Shown in pieces: positions 2,030 to 60,537 of a stretch of 64,000 nucleotides of DNA. Under the pieces are notes generated by a model, which did no database searches, was not told the origin of the DNA, and worked only from the letters and a program-made list of their open reading frames with translations. The translations under genes and the position numbers were made by a program. Origin of the DNA: Escherichia coli (lineage in GTDB: Bacteria > Pseudomonadota > Gammaproteobacteria > Enterobacterales > Enterobacteriaceae); NCBI RefSeq assembly GCF_024700885.2, contig NZ_CP117016.1; one strand, written 5' to 3'. Numbering within the stretch: position 1 is the stretch's first letter; the number at the start of each line of letters is the position of its first letter.

Positions 2030-4791
2030 AAAACCGTTTCATCCTTTGTGACGGACTCGTCGTTCTGAGCATCTTCCACGTCTGCCGTAAATGCGTCGTC
2101 CACCGCCGACAACCGAATCCGGGCAATCGCCGTGTTAGCCGCCATTTTCTGCAACAGCAGCAGCGAGAGCGGCGGTAGCATGTCGCCATCGATGACCGAT
2201 TCCAGCATCCTCGCGCCGTTTTCCGCGCGGGTGACGCGGCTCATGATTTCGTCCGTCACTTCCGGTTCAATGACCACTTCTGCACCAAAGCGACTGCGCA
2301 GCACGTTATCCAGACGGGCCAGTTTTCCGGCGATAATGGTGGCGAGCGTCTCTTTCGACAGCGGCAGATACGGCACCACTTCCATACGCGCCAGCAGGGC
2401 AGGTTTGAAGAAGTCGGCCAGCACCGGATACAGTTCTTCCTGCATGGTTTCCGGGTCATCGGCGTGCTCGACTATTACCTGGTAGCCGAGGTTGGACGTC
2501 AGGAAGAAGACGATATTTTTGCAGTCAATCAGGCGGCCTTCACCGTCTGCCATTTCGCCCTTATCGAACGACTGGTAGAACAGGTTGAGCACATCCGGGG
2601 GCGCTTTTTCCACTTCATCGAGCAGTACTACCGAGTAGGGTTTCTGGCGAATCGCTTCGGTCAGTACGCCGCCTTCACCGTAGCCAACGTAGCCCGGAGG
2701 CGAACCAATCAGCCGCGAGACGGTGTGTTTCTCCTGGAATTCGGACATATTGATGGTGGTCAGGTACTGGCGACCGCCGTAGAGCAGCTCTGCCAGTTGC
2801 AGGACGGTTTCGGTTTTACCCACACCGCTGGGGCCAGCCAGCAGGAACGCACCGAGCGGGCGTCCCGGAAGACGCAGGTCGGCGCGTGCGGTCAGTAGAT
2901 GCTTATGCAGGCTGGCAATCGCCAGGTCTTGGCCTTTGATGGTGTCGCCCAGCCATTTCGGCAGGTCGGTGATGACCGACATTTCATTCTGCGACAGGCG
3001 GTTGAGCGGCACGCCGGTCCATTCGGCAATCACCGCCGCAATCTGTTTTTTATCGACGTGCGGGGAGACCAGCAACCGGTCGTTATGCAGGGCGTCCAGT
3101 TCGGCAGTGAGCTGGGCCAGCCGCTGTACCGGGGAAACTGTTTCAGCGGTCTCTTCCGGCTGTTCTCTGTCGGCCTCATCAGCCGGTACGGCACCGGTAT
3201 TATCCTGTTCTGACTCTGACTCTGGCGGCGTATCCTCCGCGGCATCTGCGTCCGGCAACGACGCCGCATCGTCTTCTGCCACGCCCAGCAACTGCTGGCG
3301 CAGCGCGATAATCTCCCGGACCAGCGCCTGCTGCTGATGCCAGGCCGCTTCCAGTTCATCCAGCGCCGTCAGCGTTTCATCGTACTGCACCAGCACCTCG
3401 GTCATCCGTGAGGTGTTGGTACGCAGCCCGATGCGAAGCTCGCGCTCAAGCTGGCGAATTTCCGCCTCCTGCTGGTGGCTCAGAGTGGTCAGCGCCGAGA
3501 TTTGCTTCGGCGGCGAGGAAAGGTTAATGGCGACGCGGGCGCAGGCGGTATCCAGCACATCAATGGCTTTGTCCGGCAACTGACGCCCGGAGAGATAACG
3601 TTCGCTCAGCGTTGCTGCGGCCTGCAAGGCGTCATCATCAATCAGCACGCCGTGAGACTGTTCATAGACCGCCGACAGACCACGCAGAATAATGGTGGCT
3701 TCGGCGGCGTTGGGTTCGCTGACCTTCACCAGCTGGAAGCGGCGCGACAGGGCGGCATCTTTCTCGAAGTATTTTTTGTATTCGCTCCAGGTGGTGGCGG
3801 CGATGGTTTTCAGTTCGCCGCGCGCCAGCGCCGGTTTGAGCAGGTTGGAGATATCCAGCCCGCCCTGCTGGTTGCCCGCGCCAATCAGGGTATGTGCTTC
3901 GTCAATAAACAGAATGACCGGCACCGGAGAGGAAATGACCTCCGCCATCAGCCCCTTGAAGCGTTTTTCGAATTCGCCCTTCACCGACGCCCCGGCCTGC
4001 AATGCGCCTAGGTCAAGGGTCATGATATCGGTGTTTTTCAGTTTGTCCGGCACCTGGCCTGCCACGATGCGCAGCGCCAGCCCTTCGATTAAGGCACTTT
4101 TACCCACGCCTGCTTCGCCCACCACCACCGGGTTGTTCTTGCGGCGGCGGCAGAGAATGTCGATCATCAGGTCGATTTCGTGGTCGCGGCACAGTACCGG
4201 GTCAAGCCTGCCGTTACGGGCGTCTGCGGTCATGTTTTTGGCGTAGCGGGCAAGCAGGGTGTCAGCAGCGTCCGTCAGTGTGCCTGCGACTTTACCGTCT
4301 GCATCCGGCACGACTGATTCCGCCGACTCCTGTGTCCACTGTACAAAGTCCTGTTGCAGACGGTCACGGTTAATGCCGGTCAACAACCGGGCGGCAGCAG
4401 GCGGTATATAACGCAGCGGCGAATGCAGCAGGGCCAGCAGCAACACGCCGCCACGCAATTCGCTGTGCTGCATCTCAGCCGACGCCAGCAGCCAGCCCTC
4501 TTTCAGCCACTCAACCAGCATCGGGGAAAATGCCGGGTAGCTGTCCGCAGAACGGGCAGTTGTGTAGTTCTCCACCGTCAGCGCCTGGCGCAACTCTTCC
4601 ATGCCAATATCGCCCTGGCGGGTAATAACCCGCAGGTCGCTGCGTGGCATGGCGAGCATCTGAATAAGCACATGGCTGACGGTAATTTCCGCTGCCTGCT
4701 GGCTCATACATTCAGAGGCGGCCATCTCCAGCGCCTGGCGGGAGAACAGGTTAAGCCGTTTTACCAGCGTGGGAAGATCAATCTGGATCAT
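2026..4791 (-). CDS. clpV: T6SS AAA+ ATPase ClpV/TssH
   Basis: ClpB-like protein with two AAA+ modules (VVGEAGVGKSALIEGLALRI; LLAGPSGVGKTETVLQLAELLYGG). ORF track gives 2026..4905; the likely start is the internal Met (MIQIDLPTLVKRLN) at 4791, 8 nt downstream of the tssL stop. Confidence 0.9.
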   Translation of the reverse strand: MIQIDLPTLVKRLNLFSRQALEMAASECMSQQAAEITVSHVLIQMLAMPRSDLRVITRQGDIGMEELRQALTVENYTTARSADSYPAFSPMLVEWLKEGWLLASAEMQHSELRGGVLLLALLHSPLRYIPPAAARLLTGINRDRLQQDFVQWTQESAESVVPDADGKVAGTLTDAADTLLARYAKNMTADARNGRLDPVLCRDHEIDLMIDILCRRRKNNPVVVGEAGVGKSALIEGLALRIVAGQVPDKLKNTDIMTLDLGALQAGASVKGEFEKRFKGLMAEVISSPVPVILFIDEAHTLIGAGNQQGGLDISNLLKPALARGELKTIAATTWSEYKKYFEKDAALSRRFQLVKVSEPNAAEATIILRGLSAVYEQSHGVLIDDDALQAAATLSERYLSGRQLPDKAIDVLDTACARVAINLSSPPKQISALTTLSHQQEAEIRQLERELRIGLRTNTSRMTEVLVQYDETLTALDELEAAWHQQQALVREIIALRQQLLGVAEDDAASLPDADAAEDTPPESESEQDNTGAVPADEADREQPEETAETVSPVQRLAQLTAELDALHNDRLLVSPHVDKKQIAAVIAEWTGVPLNRLSQNEMSVITDLPKWLGDTIKGQDLAIASLHKHLLTARADLRLPGRPLGAFLLAGPSGVGKTETVLQLAELLYGGRQYLTTINMSEFQEKHTVSRLIGSPPGYVGYGEGGVLTEAIRQKPYSVVLLDEVEKAPPDVLNLFYQSFDKGEMADGEGRLIDCKNIVFFLTSNLGYQVIVEHADDPETMQEELYPVLADFFKPALLARMEVVPYLPLSKETLATIIAGKLARLDNVLRSRFGAEVVIEPEVTDEIMSRVTRAENGARMLESVIDGDMLPPLSLLLLQKMAANTAIARIRLSAVDDAFTADVEDAQNDESVTKDETVL

Positions 4792-12045: not shown

Positions 12046-13521
12046 TTACTCCCTGTCTAACCGGCCAACCAGGGATAGCTCAAAGTTTGCCCCCATAAAT
12101 TTAAAATGGGGCCGCACGCTCAGCGCGACCTGGTACCAGCCGGGTTCGCCTTCCACATCCATAACCTCAACTCTGGCAGCACGCAGAGGCTTGCGGCTGC
12201 GCACGTCCGCAGGCGGGTTTTCCTGGTCGGCAACATACTGACGGATCCAGGTATTAAGCTCCCTCTCTAAGTCGCTCCTTTCTTTCCATGACCCCAGTTG
12301 TTCACGCTGCAACACCTTGATGTAGTGCGCTAACCGATTGATGATGAAGAGATAAGGAAGCTGCGTACCCAACTTATAGTTGGTTTCTGCGTCTTTGCCC
12401 GGAAAGTGCTTCGGTTTTTGTACCGAGTTTGCAGAGAAAAAGGCTGCATTATCAGAGTCTTTACGCATGGTAAGGGTGATAAAACCCTCTTCAGCCAGTT
12501 CAAATTCGCGGCGATCGGTGACCAGCACCTCGGTTGGGATTTTGGCCTGAATCTGACCCATCGTTTCGAACAGATGCACCGGCAGATCTTTCACTGCGCC
12601 GCCGCTTTGCGGACCGATGATATTTGGACACCAGCGGTATTTGGCAAAACTGTCTGCGACATTGCACGCCAGCATCCAGGCCGTATTACCCCACAGATAA
12701 TCTTCGTGGTTCCGGCTGACATCTTCGTGATAGTTAAAGTTCTTAACAGGGTTATCTGTTGGTGAATAAGGCTGGCGAAGCAGGAAGCGGGGTGCCGTAA
12801 GCCCTAAATAGCGCGAATCTTCCGAGTCACGCAGGGCGCGCCATTTGGTGTAGGCCGGACCTTCAAAGATGGCATAAAGATCTTTGATATTAGGCAGTTC
12901 GGTCCACGAGTTCAGCCCCATAAACTCCGGGGAAACGGAGGAGAGGAACGGTGCGTGCGCCATTGCGCCCACAGCACTGACGTATTGCAGCAGTTTCATG
13001 TCAGGAGCGGTATTTTTGAACTCATAAGCGCCCAGCACGGCAGCGATGGGTTCACCACCAAACTGTCCGAATCCGGACGAATAAACGTGTTTATAAAATC
13101 CGGACTGAATAATTTCTGGGGCAAATTCAAAGTCTTCCAGAAGTTCCTGCTTCGTGACATGAAGCACGTTGACCTTGATGTTTTCACGGAAATCAACGCG
13201 ATCCACCATGGTTTTCAGTGAGCGCCAGAACGACTCGACCTGCTGAAAGGCAGGCGCATGGATGATGACATCCATCTGGCGGCTGATGCGTTCATCTATA
13301 TCTGCAATCATGCTGTCCACGGCCAGTTTATTGACCGGTTCGGCAGATGCAGTGGATTGCAGGATGCTGGCAATAAAGGCTGTCACACCCTGGCGGGCAA
13401 CGTCATAACCTTCCGAACCGGGCTGAATACGGGTCTGTGCCATGATTTGATCAAGCAGCGACGACGCCTGATCAGTCTGCCCGGCATGACTGGAAACGAG
13501 TTCCTCTTCCTGTAAAGACAT
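12046..13521 (-). CDS. tssC: T6SS contractile sheath large subunit TssC (VipB)
   Basis: 491 aa; size and sequence match the TssC family; follows tssB. Confidence 0.9.
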   Translation of the reverse strand: MSLQEEELVSSHAGQTDQASSLLDQIMAQTRIQPGSEGYDVARQGVTAFIASILQSTASAEPVNKLAVDSMIADIDERISRQMDVIIHAPAFQQVESFWRSLKTMVDRVDFRENIKVNVLHVTKQELLEDFEFAPEIIQSGFYKHVYSSGFGQFGGEPIAAVLGAYEFKNTAPDMKLLQYVSAVGAMAHAPFLSSVSPEFMGLNSWTELPNIKDLYAIFEGPAYTKWRALRDSEDSRYLGLTAPRFLLRQPYSPTDNPVKNFNYHEDVSRNHEDYLWGNTAWMLACNVADSFAKYRWCPNIIGPQSGGAVKDLPVHLFETMGQIQAKIPTEVLVTDRREFELAEEGFITLTMRKDSDNAAFFSANSVQKPKHFPGKDAETNYKLGTQLPYLFIINRLAHYIKVLQREQLGSWKERSDLERELNTWIRQYVADQENPPADVRSRKPLRAARVEVMDVEGEPGWYQVALSVRPHFKFMGANFELSLVGRLDRE

Positions 13522-13589
13522 ACTGAAAATCCTTCTGTTTTAGCTGTGTTTCTGAAACCGGGTTTTCGCCGTCAGTGAAGTACGCGCCG

Positions 13590-13841
13590 TCAGTACGGCG
13601 CGCTCTGCTGAAACTCACAAAGATGGATAATCTCATCCAATAGATCACTGATACGGCGATCCAGTGTTGTAATCAGCGCATCCACGCCATCCCGGTTGAT
13701 TTCACCGGACGGGCTGAAACATACCCGGTAAACCGCCTGCAAAATGTCTTCGTCAGAGAGGGGGTGTTTCCCGGAGATATTTTTGTGTGCCGCCATGTCT
13801 GGATAACCCTGTTTAATGAAATAGTGGTGGTTATTTCCCAC
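13590..13841 (-). pseudogene. Remnant resembling the 5' end of a divergent tssC allele
   Basis: 83-aa ORF in the unusual ~300 bp tssB-tssC gap. Its C-terminal half (GEINRDGVDALITTLDRRISDLLDEIIHLCEFQQ) aligns with intact TssC residues ~60-95 (PVNKLAVDSMIADIDERISRQMDVIIHAPAFQQ), about 15 of 33 identical by eye. Confidence 0.4.
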
Positions 13842-14331
13842 TCACCTGGCCGATTTCTTTAAGCAACTGCTCGCGGGACTCCTCATTTTCCAGCAATGCC
13901 TGGAGCTGGGTACGGAATGCCGGAAGGTTGCCCATCGGCCCCTTCAGCGCAGTCAGTGCTTCACGCAGTTCCAGCAATTTATTCACTTCCGGAACCTGCC
14001 GGGCCACGCTGTCCGGTGAAAAATCATCCAGTGACTTGATATTCAGCGCCACATTCAGTTCATCGTCCGTTGTGCTTCCCTTCAGCGTGGCGGGGACGGT
14101 AAAATTGAGGCCAATGGCTGCTTCAGCCATTACTGCACCGAAATTGTGCTTGTTAACGGAAACTGCCTGACGTTCATCCAGTGGGGATGTCTCCTGCGTA
14201 TTTCCGGTATCGCCGACAACGAGCATGTTAAGCGGAAGCTCTACTTCAGCCGTCTGGCCGTCCGTCTTCGGGACATAGGATATATTTATACGCTCGCGAG
14301 GCGCGACGCTGCCTTCAAATTTTTTGCTCAT
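13831..14331 (-). CDS. tssB: T6SS contractile sheath small subunit TssB (VipA)
   Basis: 166 aa; N-terminus MSKKFEGSVAPRERINISYVPKTDGQ...LNMLVVGD typical of TssB. Confidence 0.9.
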   Translation of the reverse strand: MSKKFEGSVAPRERINISYVPKTDGQTAEVELPLNMLVVGDTGNTQETSPLDERQAVSVNKHNFGAVMAEAAIGLNFTVPATLKGSTTDDELNVALNIKSLDDFSPDSVARQVPEVNKLLELREALTALKGPMGNLPAFRTQLQALLENEESREQLLKEIGQVSGK

Positions 14332-15027
14332 AAAAGTGATCCGTCATGTTATCTCGTACAGGCCATGAACACGGCATATTTGTACCGCAAAAAAATATCG
14401 GCAATGCCGCCATAATGGCGGTGAAAATAAAATCACCACTCCTTCATCACCCCGCATTCTACGCTTCAAAATAAATAAGAAAAGGACTTTTTATCGATCG
14501 TAAAGAGGGGTATTCTGCAAGCGTTAAATAGATTGTGTGAACCTGTGCAATTCGCGTCAGGTGTATTATGGCAATAATTTAAATATATAGCTTTTATGTA
14601 ACTTATTGAATTATACAATAATTTCATTAAACATAAGCTAATCTGATGATTGCTTGTTTATATATTTGTTTTGTGATTGATTAAGTGGGTATTTTTAAGG
14701 AATATCTCAAAAATTATCAAAATGATAATTCAGAAAGGATAAATACAATATTTATTCATGATTCAGCTTTGGCCATTTTATGGAGGCAATACGGACTTTG
14801 AATAGTTGGGTATGGTTATCCAGATATATATTATTAACTTATTGCTGAATAAGAGATTTAATGATTTTAAAAATAGTTTTTACGACAACCGTAAATTCTA
14901 GCTCGGTTTGTATGTAAAAAATACTGAAAAATGATGCGGTTCCGTGAAGTGAGCTGCATCTGCCTGTCTGGGATTAACGGCAGGTCATTGTAAGTAGTAA
15001 TTAACCACGTTAACAAGGAGTTTACAA
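14332..15027. promoter_or_regulatory. AT-rich divergent control region between the tssB operon and hcp
   Basis: ~700 bp with no convincing ORF, visibly AT-rich, flanked by divergent tssB (minus) and hcp (plus) starts; RBS aaggag precedes the hcp ATG. Confidence 0.45.
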
Positions 15028-15546
15028 ATGCCAACACCGTGTTATATCTCCATCACAGGTCAGACCCAGGGAAATATTACTGCAGGTGCATTTACCGCTG
15101 ATTCTGTCGGCAACATCTATGTGCAGGGGCACGAAGACGAGATGCTGGTGCAGGAATTCCTGCATAACGTTACTGTCCCGACCGATCCTCAGTCCGGCCA
15201 GCCTGCGGGTCAGCGTGCTCACAAGCCGTTCATTTTTACCGTGGCGCTGAACAAAGCTGTTCCGCTGATGTACAACGCACTGGCCTCCGGCGAAATGCTG
15301 CCAACCACTGAACTTCACTGGTGGCGTACCTCTGTGGAAGGCAAACAGGAGCATTATTTCACCACCCGCCTGACCGATTCGACGATTGTCGATATGAAAC
15401 TGCATATGCCGCATTGCCAGGATCCGGCGAAACGCGAGTTCACCCAGTTGCTCGAAGTTTCACTGGCCTACCGCAAAATAGAGTGGGAACACGTCAAGTC
15501 TGGCACCTCCGGTGCCGACGACTGGCGCGCACCGCTGGAAGCATAA
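15028..15546 (+). CDS. hcp: T6SS inner tube protein Hcp (TssD)
   Basis: 172 aa; MPTPCYISITGQTQGNITAGAF... typical of Hcp. Confidence 0.9.
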   Translation: MPTPCYISITGQTQGNITAGAFTADSVGNIYVQGHEDEMLVQEFLHNVTVPTDPQSGQPAGQRAHKPFIFTVALNKAVPLMYNALASGEMLPTTELHWWRTSVEGKQEHYFTTRLTDSTIVDMKLHMPHCQDPAKREFTQLLEVSLAYRKIEWEHVKSGTSGADDWRAPLEA

Positions 15547-15556
15547 GTTAAGCCAA

Positions 15557-15590
15557 CAGCATCCGGCTATTAGGCCGGATGCTGTTTTTG
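15557..15590 (+). terminator. Rho-independent terminator after hcp
   Basis: Inverted repeat cagcatccggc / gccggatgctg followed by tttttg. Confidence 0.6.
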
Positions 15591-15755
15591 TATTACGCCG
15601 TAAAAAGAAAGGTTGTCAGTAAGGGGTTACGTTCACGGGAGATGGCGGATGCCGGAAACTTCGGCGGTAGCGTGCCTGAACGCAAGCGTAACACTGTACT
15701 GTTACAGCCGCTTTAACAGCGAACTGTCTGTTTTTCCTTAAACCCGGAGGTTGCT

Positions 15756-17864
15756 ATGTCAACCGGATTACGTTTCACGCTGGAAGTGGACGGCCTGCCA
15801 CCGGACGCGTTTGCGGTGGTCTCCTTTCATCTGAACCAGTCACTCTCTTCGCTCTTTTCCCTCGATCTCTCTCTGGTCAGCCAGCAGTTTCTCTCCCTTG
15901 AATTTGCGCAGGTGCTGGACAAAATGGCCTACCTGACGGTATGGCAGGGCGATGACGTACAGCGCCGGGTGAAAGGTGTGGTGACCTGGTTTGAACTGGG
16001 GGAGAACGACAAAAACCAGATGCTGTACAGCATGAAGGTGTGCCCACCGCTGTGGCGCACAGGGCTGCGCCAGAACTTCCGTATCTTCCAGAATGAGGAC
16101 ATCGAAAGCATACTCGCGACGATCCTGAAAGAAAACGGGGTGACCGAGTGGAGTCCGCTGTTCAGCGAGCCGCATCCTTCCCGTGAGTTTTGTGTCCAGT
16201 ACGGCGAAACCGATTACGATTTCCTGTGCCGGATGGCGGCGGAGGAAGGCATCTTCTTTTATGAGGAGCACGCGCAAAAAAGTACCGACCAGAGCCTGGT
16301 CCTGTGCGACACCGTGCGTTATCTGCCGGAGTCCTTTGAGATCCCCTGGAATCCGAACACCCGTACCGAGGTGAGCACCCTATGCATCAGCCAGTTCCTC
16401 TACAGCGCACAAATCCGCCCATCTTCCGTGGTGACCAAAGACTACACCTTTAAACGACCCGGCTGGGCAGGGCGTTTTGATCAGGAAGGCCAGCACCAGG
16501 ATTACCAGCGCACACAGTATGAAGTGTATGACTACCCCGGACGTTTCAAGGGTGCCCACGGGCAGAACTTTGCCTGCTGGCAGATGGATGGCTGGCGAAA
16601 CAACGCAGAAGTGGCGCGCGGAACAAGCCGTTCGCCGGAGATATGGCCGGGACGGCGAATTGCGCTGACGGGGCATCCGCAGGCGAACCTGAACCGGGAA
16701 TGGCAGGTGGTGGCAAGTGAACTGCACGGCGAGCAGCCGCAGGCGGTGCCGGGACGCAGGGGTTCAGGTACCACGCTGAATAACCACTTTGCGGTAATAC
16801 CGGCAGACAGAACATGGCGGCCACAGCCGTTGCTGAAACCGCTGGTGGACGGCCCGCAGAGCGCCGTCGTGACGGGACCGGCAGGAGAAGAAATCTTCTG
16901 TGATGAACATGGCCGCGTGCGGGTGAAATTTAACTGGGACCGCTATAACCCGTCAAACCAGGACAGTTCATGCTGGATCCGTGTGGCACAGGCGTGGGCA
17001 GGCACCGGCTTTGGCAACCTGGCGATACCGCGTGTGGGTCAGGAAGTCATTGTGGACTTCCTCAACGGCGATCCGGACCAGCCGATTATTATGGGGCGTA
17101 CCTACCACCAGGAAAACCGCACCCCCGGCAGCCTGCCGGGAACAAAGACGCAGATGACCATTCGTTCGAAAACCTATAAGGGCAGCGGGTTTAATGAACT
17201 GAAGTTTGACGATGCGACAGGGAAAGAACAGGTCTACATCCACGCGCAGAAGAACATGAACACCGAGGTGCTGAATAACCGCACCACGGATGTGATAAAC
17301 AACCATGCTGAGACCATTGGCAACAATCAGATGATTGCGGTTACCAACAATCAGATACAGACGGTGGGTGTTAACCAGATAGAGACGGTGGGCAGTAACC
17401 AGATCATTAAAGTGGGCTCTGTTCAGGTGGAAACGATTGGACTTGTTCGTGCGCTGACTGTGGGCGTGGCGTATCAGACGACGGTAGGTGGCATTATGAA
17501 CACCTCGGTGGCCCTGATGCAGTCCTCGCAGATCGGTTTGCATAAATCGTTGATGGTCGGGCTGGGTTATGACGTCAAAGTCGGAAATAACGTTACCTTC
17601 ACCGTTGGTAAAACGAAAAAGGATGATACCGGGCAGACCGCGATTTACTCCGCCGGTGAGCATCTGGAACTCTGCTGTGGTAAGGCAAGGCTGGTGCTGA
17701 CTAAGGACGGACAAATTTTTCTCAACGGCACAAAAATTCATTTGCAGGGTAAGGAGCAGGTTAATGGTGACTCACTGTTGATTAACTGGAACTGTGCAGC
17801 CTCGAAATCCCCACCGAAGACCCCTGATGAAAAGCAGGATACGCCGGATATGAGAGAGTACTGA
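15756..17864 (+). CDS. vgrG: T6SS spike protein VgrG (TssI)
   Basis: 702 aa; gp27/gp5-like VgrG with the repetitive beta-helix region (VINNHAETIGNNQMIAVTNNQIQTVGVNQIETVGSNQII). Confidence 0.9.
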   Translation: MSTGLRFTLEVDGLPPDAFAVVSFHLNQSLSSLFSLDLSLVSQQFLSLEFAQVLDKMAYLTVWQGDDVQRRVKGVVTWFELGENDKNQMLYSMKVCPPLWRTGLRQNFRIFQNEDIESILATILKENGVTEWSPLFSEPHPSREFCVQYGETDYDFLCRMAAEEGIFFYEEHAQKSTDQSLVLCDTVRYLPESFEIPWNPNTRTEVSTLCISQFLYSAQIRPSSVVTKDYTFKRPGWAGRFDQEGQHQDYQRTQYEVYDYPGRFKGAHGQNFACWQMDGWRNNAEVARGTSRSPEIWPGRRIALTGHPQANLNREWQVVASELHGEQPQAVPGRRGSGTTLNNHFAVIPADRTWRPQPLLKPLVDGPQSAVVTGPAGEEIFCDEHGRVRVKFNWDRYNPSNQDSSCWIRVAQAWAGTGFGNLAIPRVGQEVIVDFLNGDPDQPIIMGRTYHQENRTPGSLPGTKTQMTIRSKTYKGSGFNELKFDDATGKEQVYIHAQKNMNTEVLNNRTTDVINNHAETIGNNQMIAVTNNQIQTVGVNQIETVGSNQIIKVGSVQVETIGLVRALTVGVAYQTTVGGIMNTSVALMQSSQIGLHKSLMVGLGYDVKVGNNVTFTVGKTKKDDTGQTAIYSAGEHLELCCGKARLVLTKDGQIFLNGTKIHLQGKEQVNGDSLLINWNCAASKSPPKTPDEKQDTPDMREY

Positions 17865-17930: not shown

Positions 17931-20900
17931 ATGAGCGGAAAACCAGCGGCGCGTCAGGGAGATATGACTCAGTATGGCGGTCCCATTGTCCAGGGTTCGG
18001 CAGGTGTAAGAATTGGCGCGCCCACCGGCGTGACGGACGGTGCCGGGCGGGAGTTCCGTCTGGTGCTGACCACGCAGGCGCAGCGGGCGGAAGAGGCCCG
18101 TAAACAGCACACCGCTTCCTTATTTTCCCCTGACACCCCCCGCCCTCTTTCAGCCTCAGCGTTCCCCGACACACTGCCCGGTACCGAATACGGCCCCGAC
18201 AGGGGCATCCGTCTTTCGGCGGTGTGGCTGATGCACGACCCGGCATACCCGGAGAGCCTGCCCGGTGCGCCACTGGTGCGGTACACGTATACGGAAGCCG
18301 GTGAACTGCTGGCGGTATATGACCGCAGCAATACGCAGGTGCGCGCTTTCACGTATGACGCGCAGCACCCGGGCCGGATGGTGGCGCACCGTTACGCGGG
18401 AAGGCCGGAGATGCGCTACCGCTACGACGATGCGGGGCGGGTGGTGGAGCAGCTGAACCCGGCAGGCCTGAGTTACCGCTACCAGTATGAGCAGGACCGC
18501 ATCACCGTCACGGACAGCCTGAACCGGCGTGAGGTGCTGCATACAGAAGGCGGGGCCGGGCTGAAGCGGGTGGTGAAAAAAGAACTGGCGGACGGCAGCG
18601 TCACGCGCAGCGGGTATGACCCGGTGGGGCGGCTTACGGCGCAGACGGACGCGGCGGGACGGCGGACAGAGTACGGTCTGAATGTGGTGTCAGGCGACAT
18701 CACGGACATCACCACGCCGGACGGGCGGGAGACGAAATTTTACTATAACGACGGGAACCTGGTGACGGCGGTGGTGTACCCGGACGGGCTGGAGAGCCGC
18801 CGGGCGTATGATGAGCGGGACAGGCTGGTATCGGAGACATCGCGCAGTGGGGACGTCATCCGGTATGCTTATGATAATCCGCACAGTGAATTACCGGCCA
18901 CGACAACAGATGCGACGGGCAGCACCCGGCAGATGACCTGGAGCCGCTACGGTCAGTTGCTGGCGTTCACCGACTGCTCGGGCTACCAGACCCGCTATGA
19001 GTATGACCGCTTCGGCCAGATGACGGCGGTCCACCGCGAGGAAGGCATCAGCCTTTACCGCCACTATGACAACCGTGGCCGGTTAACCTCGGTGAAAGAC
19101 GCACAGGGCCGTGAAACGCAGTATGAGTACAACGCCGCAGGCGACCTGACTGCCGTTATCACCCCGGGCGGCAACCGGAGCGAGACACAGTACGATGCGT
19201 GGGGAAAAGCGGTCAGCACCACGCAGGGCGGGCTGACGCGCAGTATGGAGTATGACGCGGCAGGACGTGTCGCCACGCTGACCAACGAGAACGGCAGTGA
19301 CAGCGCCTTCCGTTACGACGCACTGGACCGGCTGGTACAGCAGGGCGGCTTTGACGGGCGGACGCAACGTTATCATTATGACCTGACCGGAAAACTCACG
19401 CAGAGTGAAGATGAGGGGCTTGTCACCCTCTGGCACTACGACGAATCGGACCGCCTCACTCACCGCACGGTGAACGGCGAACCGGCAGAGCAGTGGCAGT
19501 ATGATGGCCACGGCTGGCTGAGAGAAATCAGCCACCTGAGCGAAGGCCACCGTGTGGCGGTCCACTACGGCTATGACGATAAAGGCCGTCTGACCAGTGA
19601 GCGCCAGACGGTGAAGAACCCGGAGACGGGGGAACTGCTGTGGCAGCATGAGACGAAACAGGCATACAACGAACAGGGGCTGGCAAACCGCGTCACGCCG
19701 GACAGCCTGCCGCCGGTGGAGTGGCTGACCTATGGCAGCGGTTACCTGGCGGGCATGAAGCTGGGCGGGACGCCGCGGGTCGAGTATACGCGGGACAGGC
19801 TGCACCGGGAGACGGTGCGCAGCTTCGGCAGCATGGCAGGCAGTAATTCCGCATATGAACTGACCAGCACATACACCCCCGCAGGTCAGTTACAGAGTCA
19901 GCACCTGAACAGCCTGGTGTATGACCGTGACTACGGGTGGAATGACAACGGCGACCTGGTGCGCATCAGCGGCCCGCGACAGACGCGGGAATACGGCTAC
20001 AGCGCCACGGGCAGGCTGGAGAGCGTGCGCACCCTCGCACCGGACCTGGACATCCGCATCCCGTATGCCACGGACCCGGCGGGCAACCGGCTGCCGGACC
20101 CGGAGCTGCACCCGGACAGTACACTCACAGTGTGGCCGGATAACCGCATCGCGGAGGATGCGCACTATGTCTACCGCCACGATGAATACGGCAGGCTGAC
20201 GGAGAAGACGGACCGCATCCCGGCGGGTGTGATACGGACGGACGACGAGCGGACCCACCACTACGACAGCCAGCACCGCCTGGTGTTCTACACGCGGATA
20301 CAGCATGGCGAGCCGCAGGTGGAGAGCCGCTACCTCTACGACCCGCTGGGCCGCCGGACGGGTAAACGGGTGTGGCGGCGGGTACGTGACCTGACGGGGT
20401 GGATGTCGCTGTCGCGTAAACCGGAGGTAACGTGGTACGGCTGGGACGGTGACAGGCTGACGACGATACAGACACAACAGAGCCGGATCCAGACGGTATA
20501 CGAGCCGGGAAGCTTCACACCACTCATCCGCATCGAAACAGACAACGGCGAGCGGGAGAAAACGCAGCGGCGGAGCCTGGCGGAGAAGTTGCAGCAGGAA
20601 GGAAGCGAGGACGGCCACGGTGTGGTGTTCCCGGCAGAACTTGTGAGGATGCTGGACAGGCTGGAGGGGGAAATCCGGGCAGACCGCGTGAGCAGTGAAA
20701 GCCGCCAGTGGCTGGCACAGTGCGGGCTGACGGTGGAGCGGCTGGCGGCACAGATAGAGCCGGTTTATTTACCTGAGCGAAAAATTCATCTTTATCACTG
20801 TGACCACCGGGGGCTGCCGCTGGCGCTCATCAGTACCGAAGGAGCAACGGAATGGCGTGGGGAATATGATGAATGGGGCAACCTGCTGAATGAGGAGAAC

Positions 20901-59268: not shown

Positions 59269-60089
59269 ATATTTTAAAAATTAATAATACTGATTCTCTG
59301 CTCAGAGATTACTACCAGTTGGATGAAGCTTCAGAAAAAATTGGTTGTAGTGAAAAGGATATACTCTGGTTTGCCAGAGAACGAGATGTAGAGCTATGCA
59401 TGGAATTCCATGATGATGAGTATGATGTTTCATGTGGTTTGAAGATTGATGGTCAAATGGATGAGTTCTTATCTAATCTGAAATATTTACCACGAGATAG
59501 AAATGGCAATATTATGTTGTCAGACTTAAGTTCTATAAGAATCCCTGATGAAGATAATTTAATTGATAAAAATGGTTTTATTCGATGTTTCATATCCGGT
59601 TTATGGGCTGTTGATTATGAATATAAAGATCTGTTAGTTAAGCATGAGGGGCAACCGGATTCCTGGCCTATTCATTTTCTACTGGCGGGTACGCCTAATA
59701 TAAATTGTAAGGTAATTCTTTATGTAAATTATGATGAAAAAGAAAATTATTATCTTTTTGAGGTTTTGTGGATTACAAAGGTACAGATTCAAAAATTCAT
59801 TGATATAGTCTTATGCGAACAAAAGCGGATAAAAAACGCCAATAAATATAAATCACAATCTGAGGCGCAAAAACAAAAACATGCTGTTCCTCGAGCTGAA
59901 ATACTCATGGCTATTATTTCGCTCTATCATCGTGATATGAGGCTAAGAAGAGAGAGTCCAGCAGCGATAGCTGATTATCTTTTTCAACATGCCAGTGAGT
60001 TCTGGCCTAAGACCGGAGAACCGCCTTTGAGCTATGATACTGTTGTTAGTTTGCTACGTAGTTGCATGAAAAACACTAAGTTTAACTAA
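59265..60089 (+). CDS. Hypothetical island cargo protein, AT-rich
   Basis: 274-aa ORF whose ATG overlaps the integrase stop (ATGA); N-terminal segment DYYQLDEASEKIGCSEKDILWFARE may be an excisionase-like HTH; the rest shows no motif I recognise. Confidence 0.55.
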   Translation: MNILKINNTDSLLRDYYQLDEASEKIGCSEKDILWFARERDVELCMEFHDDEYDVSCGLKIDGQMDEFLSNLKYLPRDRNGNIMLSDLSSIRIPDEDNLIDKNGFIRCFISGLWAVDYEYKDLLVKHEGQPDSWPIHFLLAGTPNINCKVILYVNYDEKENYYLFEVLWITKVQIQKFIDIVLCEQKRIKNANKYKSQSEAQKQKHAVPRAEILMAIISLYHRDMRLRRESPAAIADYLFQHASEFWPKTGEPPLSYDTVVSLLRSCMKNTKFN

Positions 60090-60214
60090 ATATTAACAAT
60101 TATTGTGGCTAATGATTTTGGATTTTTTTCATTAGTCACATTTTTCTCATTTATAACCTATGTTTTAATTTTCCGTGTTGAAGCCAATAGACTTAGATAA
60201 ACGGAGAATGATGA

Positions 60215-60421
60215 ATGTTATCTAAACATGATAATACTACTTTGCAACGACCTTCAATGGATTCTCTGATCGATATGAAGTTTATTACTTCCGATTGTTT
60301 ATTAAGTGATAAATGGATTTATCGATTGATTTCTCTGAATCGCTTTCCAAAACCTATAAAAATAGGTCGGATGTCACGATGGCGCGCTGCTGATTATTAT
60401 AAGTGGCGAGATGGGTTTTAA
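60215..60421 (+). CDS. alpA: AlpA-family phage transcriptional regulator
   Basis: 68 aa; HTH pattern (YRLISLNRFPKPIKIGRMSRWRAADYYKW). Confidence 0.6.
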   Translation: MLSKHDNTTLQRPSMDSLIDMKFITSDCLLSDKWIYRLISLNRFPKPIKIGRMSRWRAADYYKWRDGF

Positions 60422-60537
60422 GAAAACTCAGGTCAACATTTTGAGGGAATGAGAAATAAGGCAAGAGCAATTAATAAAGGGAATAGATTATCACCTACTC
60501 CCTAAGCCTTAATTGATAGTTAGTAATATTTAACTGA

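Follow-up and report, generated by a model that had tools for sequence, protein, structure and literature searches.

Comparative analysis of the AT-rich tssB-hcp intergenic region of the Escherichia coli T6SS-2 island, an orthologue of the EHEC bidirectional promoter t6sP

Described control regions of related type VI secretion systems

The closest described counterpart of the region analyzed here is the DNA between tssB and hcp3 of EHEC EDL933, which was named the "bidirectional promoter" t6sP and for which binding of H-NS between hcp3 and tssB is stated (Vazquez-Lopez et al. 2026, PMC13141884). When t6sP was replaced by Ptac or ParaBAD, the transcript levels of tssB, hcp3 and vgrG3 increased and the TssB, ClpV and Hcp3 proteins were made, while reporter fusions of t6sP itself were very weak and were activated by none of the tested media (PMC13141884). 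The same authors found that activation of t6sP was insufficient for a working T6SS and that more control resides in the hcp3-vgrG3 gap (h3R); they also described an internal start in the Rhs gene and further control possibly located between tssB and tssC (PMC13141884). A divergent promoter with several mapped transcription start sites (Kim, Lee & Yoon 2022, J Microbiol 60:928) and a role of CsrA as a negative regulator of hcp3 and tssC in EHEC (Wang 2017) are both known to us as cited in PMC13141884. Additionally, Wan et al. 2017 (PMC5363993) reported that the EHEC T6SS cluster is almost silent in vitro, and that deletion of hns raises the level of hcp mRNA about 60-fold, an effect that is reversed by complementation.

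Three further systems were used for comparison. The SPI-6 T6SS of Salmonella Typhimurium is silenced by H-NS (Brunet 2015; Li 2023), and c-di-GMP relieves H-NS (Li 2023). It resembles the present locus as a horizontally acquired enterobacterial T6SS that is kept off by H-NS on AT-rich promoter DNA, but the published SPI-6 H-NS EMSAs were performed with the clpV and vgrG promoters, not with a tssB-hcp gap, and the Fur, bile and L-arginine inputs have been described for SPI-6. A Salmonella enterica locus (L008) that is a relative of the cluster analyzed here, without SPI-6 identity being implied, shares the divergent AT-rich gap, two of its conserved blocks (B and C, see below) and the leader hairpin. 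In EAEC sci1 (T6SS-1, PMC3145626), an E. coli T6SS promoter is likewise located upstream of tssB and is tightly repressed at the level of transcription; unlike sci1, the present gap is divergent, has no convincing Fur box or GATC over a -10 element, and is presumably H-NS-dependent rather than iron-dependent. In APEC T6SS2, the vipA/tssB and hcp2B operons are also divergent, and the hcp2B promoter is bound and activated by CpxR-P (PMC6534853), so that a response regulator acts there on the hcp side only. That system represents a different sequence variant, since the start of hcp2B, as deduced from its primers, had no exact match in 27 loci. Moreover, the APEC motif upstream of hcp is GTAAA-N4-8-GTAAA, whereas we found only a weak GTAAA-N7-TGAAA with one mismatch at 14914-14930, whose conservation is limited to E. 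coli and E. albertii.

Identity, composition and predicted silencing of the tssB-hcp gap

The window, i.e. the whole stretch of 64,000 nucleotides that was analyzed, is a part of an E. coli chromosome that carries the T6SS-2 island, with the neighbourhood tssM...tssB / hcp-vgrG-Rhs ... yafV-ivy-fadE. The initial annotation had described about 700 bp of AT-rich non-coding DNA between two divergent T6SS operons, and this observation is confirmed: positions 14332-15027 are exactly the whole intergenic gap between the divergent genes tssB and hcp, with tssC, tssE and tssF following tssB on the left, and vgrG and a PAAR-Rhs gene following hcp on the right. No RefSeq feature lies inside the gap in strain 1190, O157:H7 7386WT or O157:H7 Sakai. 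The features discussed below are listed in Table 1.

Table 1. Observed and predicted features of the tssB-hcp region. Positions are those of the window.
Feature	Position	Strand	Basis and remarks
tssB, encoding the small sheath subunit; heads the structural operon	13831-14331	minus	ORF, 166 aa; Pfam T6SS_VipA, E 1e-51; RefSeq tssB
Divergent intergenic control region, orthologue of the EHEC t6sP bidirectional promoter	14332-15027		696 bp, 33% GC
tssB ribosome-binding region GACGGATCAC	14336-14345	minus	Includes a GGA; the gap has two GATC sites, one of them here
Block A			tssB ribosome-binding region
Terminator-like hairpin with T-run, tssB leader	14391-14412	minus	Consensus scan; judged non-functional
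Predicted P_tssB	-10 TAGAAT 14461-14456; -35 TTTTCT 14483-14478; start near 14447-14450	minus	Inferred
Block B, predicted tssB core promoter	14455-14518	minus	Alignments; AGAATAC ... AAAAAGTnCTTyTC ... GCGTArAATG on the tssB strand
AT-rich core, presumed H-NS binding platform	14520-14920		26.9% GC; GC, A/T-tracts, literature on the orthologue
Predicted intrinsic curvature peak 1, 41 degrees	14705-14725		Wedge-model script; just 5' of the predicted hcp -35
Predicted P_hcp	-35 ATGATA 14722-14727; -10 TACAAT 14744-14749; start near 14756-14758	plus	Inferred
Block C (central), operator-like near-palindrome and predicted hcp promoter	14738-14765; 14722-14765 with the predicted -35 element	plus	Alignments
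Predicted curvature peak 2, 41 degrees	14900-14933		Wedge-model script; contains the CpxR-like site
Block D	Last ~75 nt upstream of the hcp ATG
Conserved hcp-leader hairpin, CCTGTC/GGCAGG stem	14963-14984	plus	Comparative, RNAalifold; GGA in loop at 14971-14973
hcp Shine-Dalgarno AAGGAG, with second GGA	15015-15020	plus	Invariant in 12 orthologues
hcp, first gene of the hcp-vgrG-PAAR/Rhs side	15028-15546	plus	ORF, 172 aa; Pfam T6SS_HCP, E 5e-31; RefSeq

The gap is the same locus as t6sP of EHEC EDL933 and Sakai in another lineage, having the same length of 696 bp, 96.8% identity, the same flanks and the same chromosomal site. In O157:H7 Sakai, the T6SS-2 island comprises ECs_0218-ECs_0238 and the gap lies between ECs_0233 and ECs_0234. 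Within the gap, 22 substitutions and indels separate the window from O157, most of them clustered in 14381-14414 and 14535-14645. The stretches 14646-14802 and 14839-15027 are free of differences, and neither block C nor the hcp leader is affected, although divergence in the flanking genes amounts to 2-5%. The strain analyzed here also has a different downstream Rhs/effector complement. The gap of strain 1190, a canine isolate, is 100% identical. Among 5426 complete E. coli genomes, 2235 (41%) contain the gap at 96.8-100% identity, always as a single copy and nearly always on the chromosome, and the listed records of these genomes show no annotated feature in it. No other type VI system is as widespread in E. 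coli as T6SS-2, and its carriers include O157:H7 and other STEC.

The GC content of the gap is 33.0%, in comparison with 53% for the whole window, and drops to 26.9% in the core at 14520-14920. Along the sequence, the GC profile falls from approximately 52% in the flanks to 25-28% across 14500-14900; the segment 14531-14930 has the lowest GC content of all 400-bp stretches in the 64 kb. When 6331 sliding windows of 696 bp were compared, just 18 matched the AT-richness of the gap. The AT content therefore lies far above the window average over several hundred bp, as is expected of an H-NS-silenced promoter region. A/T-tracts of at least 4 nucleotides occur 18 times in the gap versus 11.6 +/- 3.0 times in shuffled sequences, whereas the best match to the Lang H-NS 10-mer reaches only 8/10. 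Promoter and curvature prediction had been proposed in the initial annotation as checks. The curvature prediction yielded two peaks of about 41 degrees, which both rank in the top four of the 64 kb, and the same maximum was reached by 3% of composition-matched shuffles; these wedge-model peaks are indicative only. With this limit on the curvature, the A-tracts and the peaks are consistent with H-NS nucleation.

These properties agree with the published data on the EHEC orthologue. The suggestion that the gap is a control region silenced by a nucleoid protein is borne out for that orthologue, which has been described as a divergent promoter, where binding of H-NS is stated, and where deletion of hns lifts hcp about 60-fold. 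The EHEC promoter swap, which raises tssB, hcp and vgrG transcripts, likewise supports that both operons are driven from the gap. The proposal that the gap holds the main regulatory inputs is only partly true: it is the promoter region of both operons, but activating it is not enough for a working system, and further control is located in the hcp-vgrG gap and within the Rhs gene, with tssB-tssC as another possible place. The role of the region and its dependence on H-NS are thus already in the literature, and the earlier reading of the window was right but not new. What is added here is a comparative map with a conserved architecture, two candidate core promoters, an operator-like palindrome and a candidate CsrA-type hairpin, all of which are predictions.

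It is important to mention that H-NS silencing was shown for the EHEC orthologue and is inferred for the present locus from the 96.8% identity. On this basis, the H-NS repression, the promoter-swap results and the h3R element of EHEC should transfer to this locus. H-NS would coat the A-tract-rich, locally curved DNA of 27-33% GC, so that in laboratory culture both operons are hardly expressed; the AT-rich stretches that separate the promoters and follow them downstream would act as a platform for H-NS nucleation and spreading, and as a landing site for putative counter-silencers. Under laboratory conditions T6SS-2 stays off, and the control region is the place at which a natural inducing signal must act.

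Conserved blocks and predicted core promoters

The comparison comprised 25 orthologous loci, four of which were obtained by a contig scan and the remainder by exact-protein look-ups; they come from E. coli, E. albertii, Citrobacter, Yokenella, Salmonella, Superficieibacter and metagenome assemblies. All 25 loci have divergent hcp and tssB genes separated by a gap of 493-696 bp with 28-34% GC, while the GC content of the flanking coding sequences is 47-53% (nine loci checked). With this arrangement kept in every locus, the divergent AT-rich gap is not a chance feature. Most of the gap is unalignable between genera, and four conserved blocks, A to D, stand out from it. The hcp genes of the orthologues share 95-99% identity at the protein level but only 83-90% at the nucleotide level, and therefore the conservation of the non-coding blocks indicates constraint. 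Within block B, the motif AGAATAC at 14516-14510 (minus strand), upstream of the predicted tssB promoter, is invariant. For the central block C, the E. coli sequence is GATAAATACAATATTTATTCATGA, and most relatives have TGAATATAATATTTATTCAT.

Promoters were searched for by a simple sigma-70 weight-matrix scan of all orthologues. On the tssB side, all seven sequences of the Salmonella/Citrobacter/Yokenella clade carry the pair TTCTCA-16-TAAAAT at the corresponding position, 83-94 nt upstream of the tssB ATG, and related forms occur in two other lineages; the form in the window is TTTTCT-16-TAGAAT. On the hcp side, the predicted -10 element reads TATAAT in five orthologues and lies 244-278 nt 5' of the hcp ATG, and a separate consensus scan of the window also lists the TACAAT/ATGATA site. 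The E. coli forms of both conserved promoters (TTTTCT/TAGAAT and ATGATA/TACAAT) are weaker than those of the relatives, and P_tssB is not among the top five weight-matrix matches in the window. Promoter prediction gave conserved hexamer pairs in both directions, but the number of consensus matches in the gap (5 versus 3.4 +/- 1.8 in shuffles) is barely above chance. Additionally, a near-palindrome T(G/A)AATA-N7-TATTCA in block C spans the predicted hcp -10 element, at the position where a repressor operator would lie.

If these predicted positions are correct, the two sigma-70-type core promoters would stand back to back, approximately 300 bp apart. The leftward promoter would transcribe tssB-tssC-tssE-...-tssM with a leader of about 118 nt, and the rightward promoter hcp(-vgrG-PAAR/Rhs) with a leader of about 270 nt. 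Taken with the EHEC data, the gap is very probably the shared control region of the T6SS-2 island, silenced by H-NS, containing promoters in both directions and possibly an additional layer of control in the leader.

Other explanations of the length, the conservation and the control of the gap were weighed against this reading. An unannotated sRNA or small-protein gene could be suspected from the unusual length of the gap, from six possible ORFs of 31-56 aa within it, and from a minus-strand terminator-like hairpin with a T-run at 14412-14391. In addition, a 54-aa ORF was called by one gene finder in the corresponding gap of a single distant orthologue (L027). Nevertheless, Rfam gave no family matches in 13400-15800 at E<=1, none of the listed genomes, Sakai among them, has a RefSeq feature in the gap, and in E. 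albertii, the closest divergent relative, non-triplet indels and a large deletion interrupt the ORFs, which cannot be aligned in more distant loci. The terminator-like hairpin, the sole site of its type, is located in lineage-specific sequence that varies between two E. coli lineages, and the conserved blocks are short and occupy the places at which one would expect promoters, ribosome-binding sites and a leader hairpin. The initial annotation was thus correct in seeing no convincing small ORF; for the sRNA or small protein that it had left open, Rfam, the ORF alignment and the window-versus-O157 comparison provided nothing in support, and we consider such a gene very unlikely. A switch of the EAEC sci1 type, in which a Fur site over the -10 element and a Dam GATC site set an epigenetic on/off state, has the merit that it operates in another E. 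coli T6SS (PMC3145626), and the best Fur-like match, GATAAATACAATATTTATT at 14738-14756 (13/19), does fall on block C and overlaps the predicted hcp -10. Such a match is however unremarkable in DNA of 27% GC, and it degrades in orthologues that keep block C. The only two GATC sites of the gap (14338 and 14496) overlap neither the Fur-like site nor a predicted -10, so that no Fur box over a -10 element and containing GATC is present in the gap, and none of the tested culture conditions induced the EHEC system (PMC13141884, PMC5363993); control of this type is highly improbable. Even less credible, to the point of being nearly negligible, is the dependence of the promoters on sigma-54 and an enhancer-binding protein. 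This type of control is known for T6SS clusters of other genera (review PMC10482370), among them several of Vibrio, Aeromonas and Pseudomonas, and the long upstream region would suit an enhancer; but TGGCAC-N5-TTGCW at up to three mismatches is absent from the gap, its sole match lying inside the hcp coding start on the wrong strand, and the annotated island has no gene for an enhancer-binding protein.

Besides the predicted sigma-70-type promoters of the shared control region, several other elements were looked for. Scans of the gap for Fur box, sigma-54, CRP, IHF, Fis, PhoP, OxyR and H-NS 10-mer sites gave only the weak matches that are expected in AT-rich DNA. An RcsB box of the TAAGAATATTCCTA type in block B was rejected: three relatives read GAAGAATACTCCTG (11/14), the window has five mismatches, and sites with up to three mismatches occur in about 20% of shuffles. 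A terminator or attenuator in the tssB leader was also discarded, as the hairpin is aligned with indels or absent in other species and contains four of the 22 window-versus-O157 differences. A fold of the tssB leader in which the 5' end pairs with the ribosome-binding site (z = -1.62) is not kept in E. albertii. Searches for internal repeats or iterons returned short AT-rich chance pairs only, together with one 21-nt direct repeat that is not conserved.

A predicted hairpin in the hcp leader and its candidate regulators

A comparison of 12 orthologues revealed a conserved inverted repeat upstream of hcp that can form a helix of 6-7 bp between 14963-14969 and 14978-14984. In this alignment 92.9% of the cells pair, and shifting the 3' partner by 1-3 columns lowers the value to 29-52%. 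The same helix is predicted independently by RNAalifold. Five sequences have C-G as the outermost pair and another five have U-A, and U-G or G-U wobbles occur at five of the seven pairs, two of them in E. albertii alone; this covariation comes from 12 sequences in two clades, and the C-G/U-A swap may be one evolutionary event. Shuffle controls were exceeded only moderately (13-20 of 500 shuffles equal the hairpin), and the stability is ordinary, with z = +1.16 for the surrounding 101-nt fold. When a covariance model of the hcp leader was run, it detected a single copy each in the window and in 40 kb of Sakai, and its search of more distant orthologues returned no hcp-leader copy; the leader is therefore not a dispersed element.

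CsrA-repressed leaders have a standard two-site layout, in which one GGA lies in a hairpin loop and one in the Shine-Dalgarno sequence. The last 120 nt before hcp contain only two GGAs, one in the loop (14971) and one in the Shine-Dalgarno sequence (15017). They are 46 nt apart, within the 10-63 nt that apply to CsrA-regulated leaders, and a CsrA dimer can bridge a spacing of this size. The loop GGA is located on the 5' side in 11 of the 12 orthologues, and the remaining one (L017) has GAAGA instead. The arrangement of loop GGA and Shine-Dalgarno GGA is like that of leaders repressed by CsrA or RsmA, such as those of glgC and pgaA in E. coli or the T6SS mRNAs of P. aeruginosa under RsmA control. 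Unlike in those targets, the A(N)GGA context is missing from the loop sequence (UGGGAUUAA) of most orthologues, and the hairpin, a candidate CsrA site, is of ordinary stability.

Nevertheless, the repeat at 14963-14984 could instead be a DNA operator for a dimeric transcription factor, with the control of hcp being purely transcriptional. Its arms are palindromic (CTGCCG-N9-CGGCAG in several relatives), it lies 45-65 bp upstream of the hcp ATG, which would suit a proximal promoter or operator, and the transcription start upstream of it is only predicted. The variation of the arms, however, keeps RNA pairing and breaks DNA symmetry, with wobbles at five of the seven pairs, a pattern that speaks for an RNA structure rather than a DNA operator. 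In E. coli no acceptable -10 element is found between the repeat and the ribosome-binding site, and the repeat is therefore most likely transcribed. We regard the DNA operator as unlikely, although less so than the explanations discussed for the gap as a whole.

As a tentative proposal, which is possible but which we would not call probable, the hairpin together with the Shine-Dalgarno GGA may be an operator for CsrA or another RNA-binding protein that gates Hcp translation or mRNA stability in the E. coli/E. albertii/Citrobacter/Yokenella/Salmonella branch. With lower confidence, a CsrA dimer on the loop GGA and the Shine-Dalgarno GGA would block ribosome binding. If so, a post-transcriptional checkpoint would be placed on top of H-NS silencing, which could help to explain why the removal of H-NS gives no working system. 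The conserved blocks and the leader hairpin are concrete targets for mutagenesis, and they leave the overall picture of the locus unchanged. On the other side of the gap, a T(G/C)A(T/C)GGAT block in the tssB ribosome-binding region is kept in 13 orthologues.

Conservation of hcp and tssB across related loci

The Hcp protein encoded in the window is 95-99% identical to that of most related genera among the orthologous loci L004-L027, whereas TssB is only 60-78% identical across the same loci. Because the hcp DNA is 83-90% identical in this set, the high identity of Hcp reflects strong purifying selection rather than recent transfer. A second, divergent T6SS cluster is present in 29 E. coli genomes (locus L007, NZ_CM132268.1 2909926-2918098), with a TssB of 60% identity and a gene content that includes vgrG and the genes for a DUF2169 protein and for a PAAR-like protein. 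This cluster keeps a divergent AT-rich gap (682 bp), in which block C carries a strong GTGACA-16-TATAAT, and it shares the hcp-leader hairpin of the window. In the Salmonella enterica loci L008 and L009, the gene upstream of tssB is an hcp homologue fused to a long C-terminal extension; it is called at 511 aa, with the Hcp match confined to residues 1-115, which suggests an Hcp-toxin fusion, and it retains the common hcp leader and gap.

Spacers flanking tssB and hcp

The tssB-tssC spacing is approximately 310 bp in the window, as compared with 17-23 bp in L007 and in two other orthologous loci, L011 and L013. Over 32 aa, the product of the small ORF found in this spacer is 47% identical to TssC residues 63-94 (pairwise E 1e-7), which gives the ORF the look of a leftover copy of the tssC 5' end. 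Salmonella L008 has a 70-aa ORF at the equivalent position (3034-3246). Separate operons for tssB and tssC were reported by Kim 2022, as cited in PMC13141884. On the other side, the hcp-vgrG gap is 97.1% identical to that of O157; the h3R element is made up of a terminator hairpin and an internal promoter, together with the vgrG leader (PMC13141884).

Features of the window (the rows named AT-rich stretch have 30-34% GC)
Feature	Position	Strand	Remark
tssB-tssC spacer	13522-13830		
Small ORF in spacer	13590-13841	minus	RefSeq: hypothetical protein, 68-74 aa
tssB	13831-14331	minus	
hcp	15028-15546	plus	
hcp-vgrG gap	15547-15755		209 bp; counterpart of h3R (PMC13141884)
Rhs ORF	17931-21578		
AT-rich stretch	21041-22060		
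AT-rich stretch	26161-27300		
AT-rich stretch	59461-60480		

Rhs genes and other AT-rich stretches

The Rhs ORF has a PAAR-like N-terminus at its start; in the identical strain 1190, RefSeq places the start of the gene 84 bp downstream of this point and treats it as a pseudogene, "missing N-terminus". Next comes another Rhs gene, which is frameshifted. Of the other strongly AT-rich stretches, at least those at 21-22 kb and 26-27 kb fall at Rhs 3' ends and immunity-gene regions.
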